Under the pieces are notes generated by a model. The model did not search any database, had not been told where the DNA came from, and was given only the letters and a program-made list of their open reading frames with translations. DNA of 64,000 bases. It comes from Anolis carolinensis. Its lineage: Eukaryota. The position numbers were made by a program, and so were the translations under genes. The stretch is from positions 19,173,955 to 19,237,954 of the forward strand of contig NC_085843.1 of the NCBI RefSeq assembly GCF_035594765.1, written 5' to 3'. Below are positions 18,721 through 55,121 of this stretch, one piece after another. Every line of letters begins with the position of its first letter. The stretch's first letter is position 1.

Positions 18721-19559
<839 letters not shown>

Positions 19560-19883
19560 TCACATGTATTTACAAAAGACAGTATGAGCAGTGGCATTAT
19601 GTGTTAGGAACTAATTAAACCAGGTAAGTTAGAATTTATCTAACAAAAGGGGCAACTTAATAAGAAATTTCTTTAGCTGGAACTATTTCAGTTGGACTTT
19701 CAGCATTACTTTAATTTTAGAAGTACTCAGTTGAATTAAGTTATTTAAACAGTCATCCCTCCACATTTGCTAAGGTTAGCGGCATGGTGAAAGTGAAAAA
19801 AAGAAATATAATGATAATAAAACTTTATTTGTAACCCGCCCTATCTCCCCTAGAGGACTTAGGGCAGGTAACAGTAAAAAGAC

Positions 19884-20989
19884 TGTCAAGAGTCAGACGC
19901 CAGTTAACATACAAAACAAAGTTTATTCCGAAGATAAGCCAAAAAATAACATAAACACAGGAAATATGCTTGAAACACTTCACTTTTCAGTGTTTTGAGA
20001 GTAGATCGGACAATAACAACTCAAAAACGAGCCACGCTAATTCCCCATGCTGGCATTCAATAAAAAACTAAATAACGCTTCAATTCAGCTTTGGAAAACA
20101 AATAGTGTTAATTGCTGGAAAATAAACAAACTAGAAAAGCAGTAAAGCTGCTTCCATGGTGCAGATAAGCCGGGAGCCTCAAAGGGATGATGAATAGCCG
20201 TCGTCAGAAGAATCCAAGGTCAGGTCAGGAGGCAGCAGAAATTCCGAAAGACAAACCAATAGTCAGAAGCCGGGAGTAGCCGTCAGTCAGAGGACGTAGA
20301 CAGAAGCCAGGTCAAATTCAATCCAAAGTCCGAAGAGGGTGCAGTCATCCAAAACAGGTCCACGATAAGACACAGCGAGAGCCAAGCTAGATGATATCAG
20401 CAGATTCAAATCATAGTCCGAGTCCAGTCTTCATGGAAACACAGAGATCCCAATGGCGCCTCAGCAACACCTTGCCACACGCAAAGTGCAGTGGCCAAAC
20501 ATTCCCATTTTATTCCCCTTCCTCCTGGGTGACCAAACACTCACACCCAAACACCAGGTGTCCCAAATCTACTCAGAGTCTGAACTCCACACAGCTAGAG
20601 CTCGTGGATCTGGAGTACCTAGCAATTCGTCGGAGTCCCAATCATCCTGCCCACACTTAGCCCTATGAACACTTAAAGAACCATCCTCCCTTCTCCAAGC
20701 ATCCCAATTGGGATCAGCTCCTGCAGAAACCCCAGGTTCAGAAGTATCCATAAGCCCCAAATCCCCAGACATCTCCGGTGGCTGTGCCCATTCAGTGCCT
20801 GCTTCCCCAGCCACCACCTGTTCCTCAGCATCCATCTCCCCATCTGAATCTTCCTCAGAAGATCCCCCATATAGCTCTCTAAGTCGCTTCCTGCGCAACT
20901 CCTCCAGTGAACCCTCATCACGAGGGTTTTTTCTTCCTCTTCGAATTCCATCACCATCAACCATAATCCCCGAAGGCGCAGTCACAACA
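19884..20989 (-). repeat. 3' LTR
   Basis: Direct repeat of 25285-26390, preceded on the minus strand by the polypurine tract GGGGAGGGATAG (21001-20990). Confidence 0.97.
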
Positions 20990-22582
20990 CTATCCCTCCC
21001 CGCAAAGGCCCCACCCACTGGAATTAATGTGGGATCCGAGACCTCTGTAATTACTGAGGGCCTGTTACATGATGTGTCCAGTTTCAGTAAAGACCGGTGA
21101 AACACCGGATGAACCTTCAGCGTGGAAGGCAATCGCAATTGAAACGCCACAGGAGAGACCTTAGTAACAATGGGGAAAGGACCTAAGTACCGAGCCCCAA
21201 ATTTCCCCGCATGCGTCCTGATATGCTTAGCAGACAACCACACCATGTCCCCTTCTATCAATTCCACTCCAGGCTGACGATGTTTGTCAGCTTGTGACTT
21301 TTGCGTTGCTTTAGCTTCCACCAGAAGCTTCCTCGCAACGTCTTGCAAGGCCTTGAGTTCACTGGAACGATACACTGGATCCGGCGACACAATATTTTGC
21401 GCAGGCGCTACTACTCCACGTGGATGGCAACCATACATGATTTCAAAAGGCGAGTATTGGCTAGCGCTATGTGTCGCCGCGTTATACGCAAACTCTGCCA
21501 CCGGTACCCATTGAACCCAATCCCCAGCTTGCTGCAAACAAAAACAGCGCAGATACTGTTCTAACAGACCGTTCACCCGTTCAGACTGCCCATCAGTCTG
21601 CGGATGGAATGCAGTAGAGACGTTCAGTTTAGTTCCAAGCTGCGCATGGAACTGTTTCCAAAATTGTGAAACAAACTGCGGCGCTCTGTCCGAAACAATA
21701 ACCTCTGGAGCCCCGTGCAGACGGAAAATATGGCGCACAAATAATTTGGCCAACGTTGTAGCCGCCGGTACTTTAGAGCATGGGATAAAATGAGCCATCT
21801 TGGAAAACAAATCAACCACCACCCAAATACAAGTGTAGCCACCCACCCTAGGCAAATCAGTAATGAAGTCCATGGAAATAATCTGCCAGGGCTTTTCAGG
21901 GACTGGCAGAGGCGACAATAGACCACAGGGCCTACCTACTGGATGTTTACACTGTAGACAAATAGCACAGCTATCGCAGTATTTTAAAATATCCTGCCTC
22001 ATCTTGGGCCACCAATAATGACGAGTAATGGCTTGCACAGTCTTAAACCTGCCAAAATGTCCCGCAGTTGGCTCATCATGATATGCTTGTATGATTTCCA
22101 AGCGTAGTTTACCAGGCGGCACGAAAATCTGCCCATTACGTGATAACACCCCGTCCACATCCTGTAAATTAGGCAGTATAGTTCTCATATCCTGAGAGAG
22201 CAATATCAACTGCTCCTGTGTCCACCTATCCTCTTTTTGAGAAGGCAACACCCGTTCATGAAGATCCTGCCTGTCCTGTACCACATTTAACACTGAAACA
22301 GGTAAAATGGTTTGTTCAAGAAGGATTTCAGCAGTTTTGAACTCAGGCTTCCTAGAAAAAGCATCAGCCCTCAAGTTCTGCTTCCCCTCTACAAATTGTA
22401 CCCTGAAGTCGAACCTGGAAAAGAACAATGCCCACCTAATTTGTCTCTGATTCAGTTTCCTTGCAGTTTGCAAATGTTCCAAGTTTTTATGGTCAGATAG
22501 GACCACTATCTGATGTTTTGCCCCCTCCAACCAATGCCTCCAAACTTCGAAGGCCACCTTGATCGCTAGCAACTCTTTCTCC

Positions 22583-22854
22583 CATAGAATCATAGAATCA
22601 TAGAATAGTAGAGTTGGAAGAGACCACATGGGCCATCCAGTCCAACCCCCTGCTAAGAAGCAGGAAATCGCATTCAAAGCACCCCCGACAGATGGCCATC
22701 CAGCCTCTGCTTAAAAGCCTCCAAAGAAGGAGCCTCCACCACGGCCCCGGGGAGAGAGTTCCACTGTCGAACAGCTCTCACAGTGAGGAAGTTCTTCCTG
22801 ATGTTCAGGTGGAATCTCCTTTCCTGTAGTTTGAAGGGTGGAATCTCCTTTCCT
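22583..22854 (-). mobile_element. 5'-truncated CR1 LINE nested in the Gypsy RNase H
   Basis: (ATTCTATG)n tail; ORF2 end RRFHLNIRKNFLTVRAVRQWNSLP...LEAFKQRLDGHL; splits pol EQNY...WEKELLAI. Confidence 0.93.
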
Positions 22855-24413
22855 GTAGTTTTGTTCAAACGCAGTGAGTTGTCTAGAATAGAAACCACAA
22901 GGTCTTAATCTACCAGACGGGTCCTTCTGCGAGAGTACTGCTCCCAGAGCATAATTAGAAGCATCTGCCTCAACAATGAATGGTTGGTTCACATTTGGAT
23001 GTACTAAAATGTTCCCATTCTGAAAACTACATTTCAGTTGTTCAAAAGCCTTCTTGGCCTCCATAGTCCATTCGAACGGACGCTTCTTTTGCAAGAGTTG
23101 GGTTAACGGCACTGTCAACTGTGCAAAGTGCGGAATAAACTCCCTATAGTAGTTGGCAAAACCCAAAAACCTTTGTACATCCTTCTTGGATGTTAATTCT
23201 TGCCAGGTATTGACAGCGTCCACTTTTCTCGGGTCCATTTTCAGTTCCCTCCCAGATATAACATGTCCCAAAAACTCCACCTCAGACACATGGAAAACAC
23301 ACTTGGAGGCCTTAGCAAATAACCCATTTGCCCTGAGCCTGGACAACACTTGACGCACATGTTCCCCATGTTCGCGAGCGTCTTTCGAAAAAATCAATAT
23401 ATCATCCAAGTAAATCACCACAAATTTGTCTAAAAGGTCCCGGAACACATCATTAATAAATCTTTGAAATACCGCTGGGGCATTACAGAGCCCAAACGGC
23501 ATTAGTAAATTTTCGTAAGCGCCGAAACAGGTGTTAAACGCTGTCTTCCATTCGTCCCCTTCCTTTATACGCACCAAATTATAAGCCCCACGCAGATCTA
23601 ACTTCGTAAAGATGGAAGCTCCCTGAACCCGAGACAACAACTCAGGGATTAGAGGCAAAGGGTACCTGTCCCGAACAGTGTACTTGTTTAGCACACGGTA
23701 GTCGCACACCAGTCTCAAGTCGCCTGTCTTTTTTGCCACAAAAAAGACTGGAGCGGCCGTAGGCGAATTAGAAGGTCTAATGAAACCCTTCTGCAAGTTC
23801 TCATCTAAGTATTCTCTTAAAGCCTGTCTTTCAGGTAGAGTAAGTGCATACAACCTGCCTGCAGGCAACTTAGCACCTTCCACCAATTTGATCGCACAAT
23901 CATAAGGCCTATGTGGTGGTAATTTATCCGCTTCCTTTTGGCAGAACACATCCCAGAAGTCCTGATAACAAGATGGAACTCCCTCCATATCCCCACCAAC
24001 TTCATTTAGGGTTAAACACACCGGAGGGTCCAAACTGATAGTTCTGCGTACCCAATCCACCCGAGGATTGACCTGTGCCAACCAGTCCATGCCTAAAATG
24101 ACATCATATCTAGGTAGTGCAGTGACATCAAAAGTTAACATCCCCTTCTGCCCTTGCACTTGCCAGGTTACACCCGCTGTTTCTTGATCCACCATCCCGG
24201 AATGTAACAACCTTCCATCAGCACCCTCCACCCAAGCTGTGACTTTCTTCTTCACAATTGGAATTTTATTCTTCTCCGCAAAGCTTTGGTCTACGTACGA
24301 AACTGTAGACCCTGAATCCAAAAATGCCTGGGTACTAACTGGTCTCTGACCCATTACACACAATTGTATGGCCACAAACACATGCTTATTCCCCCTAGGC
24401 AATTGCATCATAG

Positions 24414-24459
24414 GCCCTAATGCGCTGGATTCATGGCGCATTAGGGCTGCCCTTTTCCC
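24414..24459 (-). promoter_or_regulatory. -1 programmed ribosomal frameshift signal (gag-pol)
   Basis: G GGA AAA slippery heptamer in the gag frame, 5-nt spacer, then a perfect 12-bp stem GCCCTAATGCGC/GCGCATTAGGGC with a 10-nt loop; pol is in the -1 frame. Confidence 0.88.
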
Positions 24460-25238
24460 GGCAGCTGAGATGGTTTTAGAGTGCAACCATGAGCAAAATG
24501 CCCCCCATTTCCACAGTACAAACACAACCTTAATCGTCTGCGTCTGTCTTTCTCCTCTTGGGACAATTTGCGTTGCATCCCAAGCTGCATGGGTTCTTCC
24601 CCAGAGTTCACAGAAGCACTAGCATGATACTCCACTACTGGAGTCCCACGAGTCTTCTTTCTGAACTCCATTCGAGCCTCTATCCTACGAACTTTGGTTA
24701 CCAGCTCATCCCAATTTTGAGCTGGTTCCACATGAGACAGCTCATCCTGTAAACATTCATTCAACCCAGCAGTAAAAACCAACATAAAAGCATGTTCTCC
24801 CCAGTCCAGTTGATGCTTAAGCAAATTAAACTTATTCAAATAATAAATTAAAGACCCTTTACCCTGCTTTAACCGATATAAAGCCCAACCTGCATTTTCC
24901 TTTTGTAAAGGATCTCCAAACGTCTCATTAAGAGCTGCCTTAAAGTCCACCAAATTATTCTTAATTGGGCTATTGCCCCTAATTACATTGACTGCCCAAC
25001 GCCCCGCTGGCCCAGTTAATAAACTTAAAATAAATGCAACTTTGTTAGTGTCTGTAGGAAACGAAAGATCAGATATTTGCAAAAAATATAAGTCCACTTG
25101 AGCCAAAAAAGTTGGTAGTTTTTCTCTGGTCCCGTCAAAACGTTCAGGCACAATGACCTGTCCTTTAATCTGCTGTGCCCTCTTTAAGGCTACCAATTCC
25201 AATTCCAAAGTGGCCAGCCTGTCGTCCAGCCCAGCCAT
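24441..25238 (-). CDS. gag: Retrotransposon Gag (sushi/PEG10-like capsid plus CCHC zinc knuckle), 265 aa
   Basis: PERFDGTREKLPTFLAQV, LKQG...YLNKF, EEPMQLG and CLYCGNGGHFAHGC; intact ORF. Confidence 0.95.
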   Translation of the reverse strand: MAGLDDRLATLELELVALKRAQQIKGQVIVPERFDGTREKLPTFLAQVDLYFLQISDLSFPTDTNKVAFILSLLTGPAGRWAVNVIRGNSPIKNNLVDFKAALNETFGDPLQKENAGWALYRLKQGKGSLIYYLNKFNLLKHQLDWGEHAFMLVFTAGLNECLQDELSHVEPAQNWDELVTKVRRIEARMEFRKKTRGTPVVEYHASASVNSGEEPMQLGMQRKLSQEEKDRRRRLRLCLYCGNGGHFAHGCTLKPSQLPGKGQP

Positions 25239-25271
25239 GTTGACTTGGCTCTCTCTGTTGTTGTTGTTTAG

Positions 25272-25282
25272 GCGTGTGGCAA
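25272..25282 (-). promoter_or_regulatory. Self-priming primer-binding site (not tRNA-type)
   Basis: TTGCCACACGC lies 2 nt after the 5' LTR and is the exact reverse complement of GCGTGTGGCAA inside the LTR (25883-25873). Confidence 0.85.
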
Positions 25283-25284
25283 TC

Positions 25285-26390
25285 TGTCAAGAGTCAGATG
25301 CCAGTTAACATACAAAACAAAGTTTATTCCGAAGATAAGCCAAAAAATAACATAAACACAGGAAATATCCTTGAAACACTTCACTTTTCAGTGTTTCGAG
25401 AGTAGATCGGACAATAACAACTCAAAAACGAGCCACTCTAATTCCCCATGCTGGCATTCAATAAAAAACTAAATAACGCTTCAATTCAGCTTTGGAAAAC
25501 AAATAGTGTTAATTGCTAGAAAATAAACAAACTAGAAAAGCAGTAAAGCTGCTTCCACGGTGCAGATAAGCCGAGAGCCTCAAAGGGATGATGAATAGCC
25601 GTCGTCAGAAGAATCCAAGGTCAGGTCAGGAGGCAGCAGAAATTCCGAAAGACAAACCAATAGTCAGAAGCCGGGAGTAGCCGTCAGTCAGAGGGCGTAG
25701 ACAGAAGCCAGGTCAAATTCAATCCAAAGTCCAAAGAGGGTGCAGTCATCCAAAACAGGTCCACGATAAGACACAGCGAGAGCCAAGCTAGATGATATCA
25801 GCAAATTCAAATCATAGTCCGAGTCCAGTCTTCATGGAAACACAGAGATCCCAATGGCGCCTCAGCAACACCTTGCCACACGCAAAGTGCAGTGGCCAAA
25901 CATTCCCATTTTATTCCCCTTCCTCCTGGGTGACCAAACACTCACACCCAAACACCAGGTGTCCCAAATCTACTCAGAGTCTGAACTCCACACAGCTAGA
26001 GCTCGTGGATCTGGAGTACCTAGCAATTCGTCGGAGTCCCAATCATCCTGCCCACACTTAGCCCCATGAACACTTAAAGAACCATCCTCCCTTCTCCAAG
26101 CATCCCAATTGGGATCAGCTCCTGCAGAAACCCCAGGTTCAGAAGTATCCATAAGCCCCAAATCCCCAGACATCTCCGGTGGCTGTGCCCATTCAGTGCC
26201 TGCTTCCCCAGCCACCACCTGTTCCTCAGCATCCATCTCCCCATCTGAATCTTCCTCAGAAGATCCCCCATATAGCTCTCTAAGTCGCTTCCTGCGCAAC
26301 TCCTCCAGTGAACCCTCATCACGAGGGTTTTTTCTTCCTCTTCGAATTCCATCACCATCAACCATAATCCCCGAAGGCGCAGTCACAACA
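25285..26390 (-). repeat. 5' LTR
   Basis: Direct repeat of 19884-20989; 11 substitutions and no indels by manual comparison. Confidence 0.97.
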
Positions 26391-27608
26391 AAGACAATGG
26401 CAAATGTTCAATGCCAAAAAACCAAAAACAACATATAACAAATCAAAAACAGACTCAATAAGAATTATAATAGTATAAATAAACATAGCATAGCACATCC
26501 CACACTTTCCAACATAAGTTATTAAAAGCTCTTAGAAAGTTCAGCTAAAAATCATTTTTAAAGCTAAGGTGGTATAAGTTAATAGACAAAGGTAGGTAGT
26601 AGTCACTTCCGCAAGAATATATATCGAGATATAGTCATACTACTTAAATATACTATTTTAAAACCTGAAGGAACATTTCTCTAGCAATAACTAGATTCTC
26701 CAGTTCGAAGTTATGGTCACATCCCAGTGAAAGCTAAATACAGAATTGCACTGAAGAATCTAGAGATTCCTAGAGATAAAATGTTAATCAAATCTATAAA
26801 AGTCAAACCTGAAAAGGAGGAAAATTGACTTGTTACTTTTTTACCTATGCTAAAAAGGTAAAAAAAAAATATTTTTCTAATTCGGTTCATTAAAAATGTA
26901 TGTGGCTTTAAGGACTTTTTTTTAGCTTTATGACACACAAGGCAGACTAGTGCACTAACCACTTTATGTCTAGATTTAACTAACTCATCCCCAATGATTA
27001 AGGCTCTCCATGTCCATTGGAACTCTAGAAAATTAAGGTATCAACCAATGTGGTTCTGGATGCTTTCTGCTTCAGATTGTTACTTTGTATACATAGGGAG
27101 GGCAGTGAACTGCATGTGGGTGGACAAGCTTTTGAGAACAAAACTATACAGATAGGATCAACAACAGAAACCCATTATTTCCCCGTACTAGGTATACTGC
27201 ATGATTTATTACAGAACATGATGTGGGAATCCAACACGAAAAATGTTGTTTCTCCAGCCTTCTTGCATTGCCCTTCCCGTGGGGATGCTGCTAAAAAGGG
27301 CCAAAGTGGAGAAAGGACAAGAAAGAAAAGGGGGCTGAGAACATAAAATACACCATTTGCATAAAGGAGCTTCTTTCTTAGGAGCTTTGTTAACTGGGTT
27401 ATGCCTCTATAGTGCTCATTGCTCTTTTGGATTCCTCTCACTTCTATACAATGTGAAATGCTTTCAAAGTGGAGAAATAATGCACAGAAGTCTTTGAGCA
27501 ACAAAATTAAAACTGTTACATTTAGGAAAGTATTTCAACTTGAAATATTTAGAAAGACGTGTTACCTTAAAAGAAATAGCAATGAGTAACAGATTAAAAT
27601 AGGTTTAC

Positions 27609-28627: not shown

Positions 28628-28805
28628 CTTGAAAAAAAATAGGGGGAAAAGAGAAAGCAGTGTAATATGTAAAATCCATCACTTAGCTGAATGCATTTGG
28701 TAAATTTTTGCCCAAAACATTGGGAAGAACCTCCTGCTGGTTAAGAGTTGTTTAACAGTCAAATAGATTGCCTTGGAGGAAAACTCTCTAACTCCTCTAA
28801 CAGGA

Positions 28806-28930
28806 TCATAGAATCATAGAATAGTAAAATTGGAAGAGACCTCATGGGCCATCCAGTCCAACCCCCTGCCAAGAAGCAGGAAATCGCATTCAAAGCACCC
28901 CCGACAGATGGCCATCCAGCCTCTGTTTAA
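28806..28930 (-). mobile_element. CR1 3' end
   Basis: ATTCTATG tail; nearly identical to the CR1 at 22583. Confidence 0.85.
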
Positions 28931-29167
28931 GAGCCAGGGGGCTGCACTCCCTGCCAAACACTCCACATTGCCTTGGAAGGGAAATTTAAACTCAAATTGC
29001 ACAATGTTTTTGATCCCTCGACTCTCAACTTCTTTTGGGGGGCTTACTTCCTCACCTCTTAAATCAACTTTTGTTGTTTGTTGTGTACCTGTAAGCTGTT
29101 TCCACTTTCAGGCAAATGTACTACAGGGTCCTCTTGATAAAATTTGTTTAGAGGATGATGATGACTA

Positions 29168-30298: not shown

Positions 30299-31106
30299 CT
30301 TTTAAAAAAGACAAAAAAAAAACATGGATTAATACAAAAATATTGCATACAATTATTATTTCTTATTGTGAAAAATGTTTAAGCTATTGTTTCTGAAAAT
30401 ATTTAGTACAGATCTCTGATCTAAAGCCAATATTACACATATAAAGGAAACTGAAAGACTAATATAAAATATGCTGAATGGCCTTGTTACAGCAGGAACA
30501 CTATTAGAATAGTATGTCTAAATTGTACAGATCAACACTACTGTGCCATAGCATTAAGAATAGCTACATGACTTCTCCGCTACTTACTGGGACCTCATAT
30601 TTATTAATATTAAGCAATATCTGTGTGTGTTTTTTCCTCACTAGATGTACTTTACCTTCATTCCTGCTGAAATTCATTTTGTTTCTGTTGGCCTACTTCT
30701 CCAATCTGTTACTGGCCGCAAAATAATTTTAATAACTACTAAATGAATTGTAATTGTGGTTTATATAAATTTATGTTTTATGTGTTTATAATTTGCAAAT
30801 AAATTTGTGAAAAATCAGACAATGTGATTTTCTGGATGTGTTTTCTCAAGTTGTCTTTCATAGTTGAGGTCTACCTGTGATGTCAATTACAGGCCTCTCT
30901 CATCTTTTTATGTGGGAGAACTTGTACAATTGGTATCTGACTAAATACTCTACCCCCCACTGTATTGTAGACTAAAGAATGAAGAATTTATTTGTACTTA
31001 GGCTTGAAGGAAACCAAATCAGATAAAGTTAACCTTAACATTAAATTAGGGCCATGATGTCCTCATAAATTCTGCAATAGAAATTACATTCACTTTAAAA
31101 AAATAC

Positions 31107-31278
31107 CTTCTCCATGCAGAAAGCTTGTATTGCTTGTGTTACTTTAGGATTGTCAGGGTTAAAGATGTCTGGATGGTCAGCAAGAATAATATCTTCAATG
31201 TAAAATGGGCGTACTGTCTGTAGAGGGATCTTCTGCAGATTCATTTTTTTGCCTTTAATGCGCAGCAAGCCAACATGC
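31107..31278 (-). CDS. MRE11: MRE11 exon 9 ([11 protein letters not shown]...AFCMEK)
   Basis: Within ORF 31095..31370; 172 nt; AG/GT bounded. Confidence 0.97.
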
Positions 31279-31465
31279 CTGGAACACATTAAGCAAATCA
31301 TTTTGTAAACATGTTGGTGGAATGAAAACAAGTGAGTTACTCCCAAGACAATAGTGAACAAATAACACAAAACAGTATGTAAAAGTAATGAATGTATTTG
31401 TTTACGTTATCCTGCCTTTTTCTTGATTCAAGGCATCTAACAGCAGATATAACATGATGCAATTA

Positions 31466-38046: not shown

Positions 38047-38182
38047 CTAAAACAAAAAGTATGAGAAATAATACTGTGACTGCATATTATCGCTTCTTAC
38101 TGTAATAAGTTATTTTGCAAAGTCATAGACTGAATTTATAGAACTTTGCTAATGTACAGTCCTGCTCATTTGATAAAATCAC

Positions 38183-38472
38183 AGAATAATACAGTTGGAA
38201 GAGACCACATAGGTCATCCAGTCCAACCCCCTGCCATGCAGGAAAAGCACAATCAAAGCACCCCCGACAGATGGCTATTCAGTCTGGTTAAATGACTCCA
38301 AAGGAAGAGTCTCCACTACACTGCGAGGCAGAGAGTTCCACTGCTGAACAGCTCTTACAGTTAGGAAGTTCTTCCTATTGTTCAGGTGGAATCTCCTTTC
38401 CTGTAATCTGAACCCATTGCTCTAAATCCAAATTACAGGAAAGGAGATTCCACCTAAACATTAGGAAGAACT
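38183..38472 (-). mobile_element. CR1 3' fragment with inverted duplication at its 5' junction
   Basis: Homologous to 22583-22854. Confidence 0.8.
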
Positions 38473-54772: not shown

Positions 54773-55121
54773 TGAATGATTCCTCCACAACCAAACCCTT
54801 TAACAGCTATGGTGATCACTTGGAGGCTAAGGGAATACATTTATATTGAAGAATCAATGTTGTAATAGTGATCTAACCAAAACTCCATTTTAGAATCATA
54901 GAATAATAGAGTTGGAAGAGACCACATGGGCCATCTAGTCCAACTCACTGTCATGCAAGAAAAGTGCAGTAAAGTATCCCTGACAGATGACCATAATAAT
55001 TTGCTCCCTCAACAGTCCGAAAGATTGTGAACCAGCCCTTTGCTTAAAAAGTTTGAGGACTCCTGCTCTACTGTATATATATGTGTGTGTATGTAGGGAT
55101 ATGTGTTAAACACAAATAGGA

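Follow-up and report, generated by a model that had tools for sequence, protein, structure and literature searches.

How does an LTR retrotransposon prime its reverse transcription when no tRNA-type site follows its 5' LTR? This question is raised by a Ty3/gypsy element at positions 26390-19884 on the minus strand of the window, which is the whole stretch of 64,000 nucleotides of Anolis carolinensis DNA that was analysed. All of the Ty3/gypsy hallmarks are present: namely, TG...CA LTRs, a TSD, gag, a pol in the order of protease, RT, RNase H, and integrase, and a polypurine tract. The two LTRs (26390-25285 and 20989-19884) are 1106 bp each and 99% identical, with 11 differences over the 1106 sites; gag and pol are read in different frames, SH3_Tf2-1 being the last domain of pol. 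The best PDB relative is the RT of Ty3, and the nearest database protein (98% identity) carries the UniRef label Anolis carolinensis. Rfam gave no matching family in window 19000-27500. The parts of the element are as follows.

26391..26395 (other copy 19879-19883), minus strand: TSD GTCTT, 5 bp
25285..26390, minus strand: 5' LTR, TG...CA, 1106 bp (self-BLAST, TSD)
24441..25238, minus strand: gag (DUF4939, Retrotrans_gag, Ty3_capsid)
22859..24618, minus strand: 5' part of pol, with protease, RT, and the first half of RNase H
22585..22858, no strand assigned: inserted dispersed repeat of ~275 bp, inside RNase H
20569..22584, minus strand: 3' part of pol, with the remainder of RNase H and integrase (H2C2, rve, SH3_Tf2-1), without chromodomain
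20990..21015, minus strand: polypurine tract region ahead of the 3' LTR
19884..20989, minus strand: 3' LTR (self-BLAST, TSD), with the second copy of the 11-mer described below at 20482-20472
20569-20989, minus strand: LTR-encoded pol tail of this family; the same LTR segment lies at 25970-26390 in the 5' LTR

After the 5' LTR end TGACA (25285), the minus strand continues with GA (25284-25283) and then with TTGCCACACGC (25282-25272); GCGTGTGGCAA at 25883-25873 is the exact reverse complement of TTGCCACACGC and is repeated in the 3' LTR. A preliminary description of this DNA had pointed out the complementary 11-mers, the lack of a TGG-type tRNA site, and an AATAAAA 26-32 nt upstream of 25883, and we confirmed all of these at unchanged coordinates: the self-pair is exactly 11 nt and extends on neither side, no TGG occurs within 24 nt past the 5' LTR, and AATAAAA lies at 25915-25909. 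The features that bear upon priming are listed below.

25272..25282, minus strand: primer-binding site (PBS), 11 nt, not of the tRNA type
25283..25284, minus strand: spacer of 2 bases between the LTR end and the PBS
25873..25883, minus strand: predicted self-primer, 11 nt (from the PBS complement and covariation), beginning at the presumed transcription start, 25883
25908..25915, minus strand: TATA-like box AATAAAAT, at -32 relative to the presumed start, containing an AATAAA hexamer
25869..25889, minus strand: short inverted repeat over the predicted U3/R border (sequence and folding)
25323..25328, minus strand: AATAAA poly(A) signal near the LTR end

According to the accessible parts of PMC7175516, Tf1 of fission yeast primes with its first 11 bases, a cut being made between bases 11 and 12. 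Self-priming is presented as typical of the Tf1/sushi group, in fungi as well as vertebrates, in the available excerpts of PMC6317226, PMC4600332, and bioRxiv 2022.12.06.519325, all of which credit it to Butler et al. 2001 and Lin and Levin 1997; the earlier remark that the mechanism had been proposed for vertebrate sushi-group elements is thus correct. In the excerpts seen, self-priming is proven for Tf1 and only predicted for vertebrates. The criterion used in PMC6317226 is a stretch of at least 10 nt complementary to the 5' LTR and starting 0-5 nt after it, and the lizard element has 11 nt at an offset of 2. From the exact pairing, the covariation described below, the lack of a tRNA-type site, and control elements with self-complements of at most 7 nt, we consider self-priming of this family likely, the start site and the RNase H cut being placed by analogy with Tf1.

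RT and Pfam searches of the same genome supplied the relatives. Among the 81 loci screened, four had no RT match, 22 had no TSD-bounded LTR pair, and seven were controls, leaving 48 relatives, in which an exact self-pair beside the LTR end reached at least 9 nt in 41 and at least 10 nt in 40. The seven relatives without a 9-nt pair are accounted for by point changes or a one-base deletion (three), a shortened LTR (one), and mis-called repeats or borders (three). These relatives make up eight Ty3/gypsy families, lettered A to H with this copy in A, whose RT sequences are 44-100% identical to that of this copy, and each family has its own, different 9-12-mer PBS paired to its own LTR. The PBS offset is 2 in all eight families, an offset of 1 occurring in G and in some F copies through one extra pair. 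When the pairs were tabulated (eight families by 11 positions), 86 of the 88 cells were Watson-Crick, one was G-U, and one was unpaired; all 11 columns vary, with two to four pair types each. The families are related and are thus not eight independent trials, and they cover two separate RT clades. The match of a PBS to a foreign LTR is 8 nt at most among the eight families, and 9 nt is seen in one cell of a 13 x 13 matrix. Between A and B, two adjacent positions differ and both are compensated; the same holds for two positions between D and F.

The pairing is also kept within families. In a set of 88 loci that overlaps the 48 relatives, the primer was located at 85, and pairing is perfect (11/11) in 26 of the 28 A, 28 of the 32 B, and 23 of the 25 D copies with a located primer. 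One variant of the family B PBS was found 315 times in the genome, and every checked copy of this sublineage (31/31; the first copy and 30 fetched ones) has the matching variant in the primer, whereas in the other B copies the standard base stands on the PBS side as well as on the primer side (28/28); the closest standard LTRs are 92-96% identical to those of the sublineage. This matched change arose once, at the founding of a successful sublineage, and does not count as 31 events; it fits selection for pairing and also a PBS copied from the primer, much as retroviruses copy their tRNA. Compensatory changes between the two 11-mers, to which the preliminary description had looked for support, are therefore found between the eight families and again within family B. 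In this sense, the genome offers natural covariation at three depths: namely, between clades, between sister families, and within a young family.

The consensus of the TATA box is TATAWAWR, and a TATA-like octamer with 0-2 mismatches to it is located at -30 to -32 from the first base of the primer in all eight families, against a background of 2-10% of LTR positions; the match is perfect in families D and H. Such a box at a fixed distance in 8/8 families favours AATAAAA as the TATA box of this element. Also, the primer begins on a purine after a pyrimidine in 8/8 families. Judging from these sequence features, transcription would start at 25883. The -32 motif of family A is at the same time a poly(A) hexamer, and GU-rich sequence comes next. 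Another AATAAA at 25328 implies a long R and a very short U5; in the accessible text of PMC3601003, the AATAAA of Sushi LTRs is likewise close to the 3' end. Since the predicted start site is exact, self-priming becomes testable on endogenous material by sequencing of 5' ends and cDNA ends.

Families A and B have donor-like AG/GT next to the end of the primer (25872-25870) and acceptor-like CAG right ahead of the PBS (25286-25284; equivalents in L012). We considered whether the stretch between these two sites might be spliced out as an intron, which is not supported: no such joint was present in contigs from six runs guessed to be RNA, which tests the idea weakly, and no donor lies at the matching place in families other than A and B.

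In the mechanism that we propose by analogy with Tf1, transcription would start at 25883, and the first 11 nt would fold back in cis onto the PBS ~600 nt downstream; RNase H would cut after nt 11 and free the primer, which would be extended through U5 and R, followed by strand transfer. The retained primer would then be copied into the daughter PBS, which would explain the fixing of paired changes. We regard this cis reading as quite probable. The predicted probability of pairing between primer and PBS in the full predicted 5' UTR is 0.9-1.0 for A, B, D, F, G, and H, ~0.5 for E, and 0.00-0.03 for C. The inverted repeat at the U3/R border is predicted to hide the 11-mer in RNAs started upstream and in the 3' LTR copy; in this copy, 10 extra bases at the 5' end lower the pairing from 0.91 to 0.01 through a U3/R hairpin. 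With 20-40 upstream bases, A2 and B lose the predicted pairing, while D, F, G, and H keep it.

Alternatively, the same 11-mer might act in trans or come from the opposite end of the element: the source would be a second RNA packaged together with the first, RNAs transcribed from solo LTRs, or the copy in the 3' LTR. Covariation does not separate cis from trans, and LTR sequence is abundant in contigs of sequencing runs guessed to be RNA. The loop to be closed in cis is ~600-700 nt in A and B compared with ~100 nt in D, F, G, and H, and for family C the folding predicts no closure. Nonetheless, A and B have a predicted cis pairing of 0.9-1.0 even over this long loop, the upstream U3 bases are predicted to hide the 11-mer of a 3' copy in these two families, and the pair ends where a TATA-directed start is expected in 8/8 families; supply in trans is thus rather unlikely.

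A second possibility is that a host RNA is the true primer and that the pairing serves some structural or regulatory purpose such as packaging, translation, or guarding of the PBS. The tRNA screen drew on an incomplete set from this genome (47 distinct sequences with 26 anticodon types), which leaves this idea some room; within this set, the best match of the PBS was 2 nt at a tRNA 3' end and 7 nt internally, and the match to a host tRNA that would have spoken against the preliminary description was therefore not found among these 47. The same screen recovered a 14-nt match to half-tRNA-Met for a copia control and a 9-nt match to the 3' end of tRNA-Leu for a Gmr1-like control, and it missed the partner of three other controls. 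The five control families, whose sites are of the TGG or half-tRNA type, comprise two Gmr1-like, two copia, and one retrovirus-like element, labels that were assigned by the order of domains, a Pfam search, or the distance in RT. Their self-complements are 0-7 nt, which is within the range of shuffles. Under a fixed host primer, neither eight unrelated PBS sequences that each track their own LTR nor a young sublineage changed in both halves would be possible, and no TGG lies within 24 nt of the LTR; we thus find this explanation very improbable.

A chance match or a neutral inverted duplication is hardly credible and is refuted by the recurrence of the pair in eight families with different letters at a fixed offset and a fixed promoter distance, by the covariation and within-family pairing, and by the matched change in the B sublineage, even though 11 nt is short, the same search gave at least 11 nt in four out of 2000 dinucleotide-shuffled LTR sequences (0.2%; the composition expectation for this single 11-mer is 0.0003 per LTR), and one cross-family cell of the matrix has 9 nt.

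The five columns after the PBS are the block richest in haplotypes in family A (8, the others having 6 at most) and in family D (5, the others 3 at most), and in family B the peak is the next block after those five columns (14, the others 9 at most). Variability in these five columns would follow from untemplated bases added by RT where the copied primer stops; the available parts of PMC11042837 describe untemplated base addition by Tf1 RT and a Tf1 cDNA 3' end that keeps the copied PBS. The variable block adjoins simple repeats in A and B, and slippage could explain it there, but family D has no simple repeat at this place. The base after the PBS (window 25271) is C in 28 of the 30 A copies, in 32 of the 33 B copies, and in seven of the eight family representatives, and A in 24 of the 25 D copies; such a C could be a copy of the cap G of the primer, given what is generally held of RT behaviour.

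Tf1 is further described in the excerpts of bioRxiv 2022.12.06.519325 as requiring a three-duplex 'pretzel', in which two more duplexes flank the PBS. While Tf1 needs these two side helices beside the primer duplex, only candidates were seen in the lizard families. The segment after the primer, when compared with the PBS flanks, gave one of 32 tests at or below 1% of shuffles, and the leader compared with R-U5 beat all 40 shuffles in 8 of 31 copies, this copy included. The candidate side helix of this copy, in which the leader pairs with nt 95-114 (0/40 shuffles), is a family A helix that is not kept in L007-L009. The LTR end folds onto nt 17-27 in F and H and into a local hairpin in B.

In terms of known systems, the element resembles Tf1/Tf2 (Schizosaccharomyces pombe), Tj1, Tosmo1-3, and Tcry1 in having an 11-nt LTR complement of a non-tRNA PBS, and the Tf1 group in placing this 11-mer at the predicted 5' end of the RNA, downstream of a TATA box (PMC7175516, PMC4600332, and bioRxiv 2022.12.06.519325, in their accessible parts); the Ty3/gypsy domain order with an SH3_Tf2-1 integrase end is also shared. 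It differs from Tf1, where the PBS motif is directly at the LTR junction (PMC11042837, in excerpt), by its two-base spacer, and from the Tf1 group by the ~600 nt between primer and PBS, the missing chromodomain, and gag and pol in separate frames. The DUF4939 capsid and, as in Sushi LTR models seen in part, the AATAAA near the LTR end are likenesses to sushi-ichi and Amn-like chromoviruses; Amn-like and Sushi-like elements (the GyDB V-clade) are present in fish, amphibians, and amniotes according to the available text of PMC2774666. A further likeness is the RT, which clusters with Gypsy proteins of fish, frogs, and reptiles, many of them with a chromodomain: in an RT tree that took in no named sushi, Amn, or Tf1 reference, this copy falls in a reptile clade of 15 rows (95/90) inside a fish-frog-reptile group of 23 rows (91/92, not starred).

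In contrast to sushi-ichi and Amn-like elements, families A and B are devoid of a chromodomain, with a pol that runs into the 3' LTR. Chromodomain PF00385 was not found in this copy or in the scanned frames of A, B, D, F, and G, and it is kept in families C and H. Since family C lies in the same reptile clade, A and B have presumably lost the domain. Without it, the element is not filed as a chromovirus in the strict sense; the chromodomain is usual, not universal, in the Tf1/sushi group (bioRxiv 2022.12.06.519325, in excerpt). As far as its sequence tells, then, the element would work like Tf1 and has the Tf1/sushi signature, and it is a member of a known group, not a new mechanism. In the parts of the literature that were accessible, which leave out subscription papers, we found no covariation analysis of and no experiment on self-priming in reptile elements. 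Elements that do without tRNA priming would presumably also evade silencing by tRNA 3' fragments.

The copy had been called near-intact and a tractable self-priming system, which does not hold: the dispersed repeat of ~275 bp (~22585-22858) interrupts RNase H and divides pol between two frames. This repeat is missing in 4/4 sister copies compared, and RNase H is uninterrupted in L003 and L013. As RNase H frees the primer in Tf1 and is broken here, this copy would depend on other copies, from which its RNase H and integrase would come. The repeat is an abundant dispersed element, with copies in the window at 22585-22858, 28802-28935, 38173-38412, and 54891-54994 and matches within 27 fetched loci. 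The LTR-encoded tail of pol, which had been coupled with self-priming, is present and common to families A, B, and C, where the frame extends into the 3' LTR by ~420, ~415, and ~290 nt, respectively, and absent from D, F, and H; this acidic tail has no Pfam match, and no tie to priming was seen. We also noticed coding segments of MRE11 at 19242-19559 and 31098-31406 on the minus strand, i.e., on both sides and on the same strand as the element, which is thus probably a sense-oriented insertion within an MRE11 intron and brings with it two poly(A) hexamers per LTR.

BEL/Pao elements, identified by their Peptidase_A17 and DUF5641 polyproteins, had been fetched as tRNA-primed negative controls and failed as such, because they show the signature themselves:

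L091, L131-L139, L141, L145, and L146, bases directly after the 5' LTR: BEL/Pao loci with an own-LTR complement

These belong to three families with 43-54% protein identity and no TGG site. Among the 17 BEL/Pao loci, 13 have full LTR pairs, one has a partial pair (and no complement), and three have no pair; all of the 13 full pairs have a complement of 9-10 nt to their own LTR at offset 0, different in each family. Cross-family matches are 8 nt at most, and 5-35 of 2000 shuffles reach the observed level. No TATA-like box is located at -30 in the LTRs of the three families. A primer made by a splice junction in the BEL/Pao LTRs was considered and rejected, with 11 nt in place of 10 nt unspliced in one of five and no gain in the other four.

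The ICTV profile (PMC8742986) describes the PBS of Belpaoviridae as an 18-nt site for tRNA-Arg or tRNA-Gly, whereas the three lizard families have no TGG and a self-complement directly at the LTR end. In the accessible portion of the literature on BEL/Pao, LTRs, and self-priming, we found no attribution of self-priming to BEL/Pao, and self-priming, if true there, would change the stated replication mode of Belpaoviridae. With its shorter pairs, three families, and no TATA-like box at -30, the sequence evidence for BEL/Pao is thinner than that for Gypsy. Self-priming might thus be the rule here in two unrelated superfamilies, i.e., in eight Gypsy families, where the capped 5' end would prime and template its own PBS, and in three BEL/Pao families, where a 9-10-nt primer would abut the LTR; we see the chances of this broader reading as evenly balanced.

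In one BEL/Pao family, tandem repeats that start with the 10-mer at the PBS position come right after the 5' LTR (L091 969-1100; L139). Furthermore, RT matches recur at a spacing of ~5.0-5.2 kb at C2:195297659-195308557, C5:22846045-22851786, and C4:227832814-227843574, which suggests tandem arrays of LTR elements.
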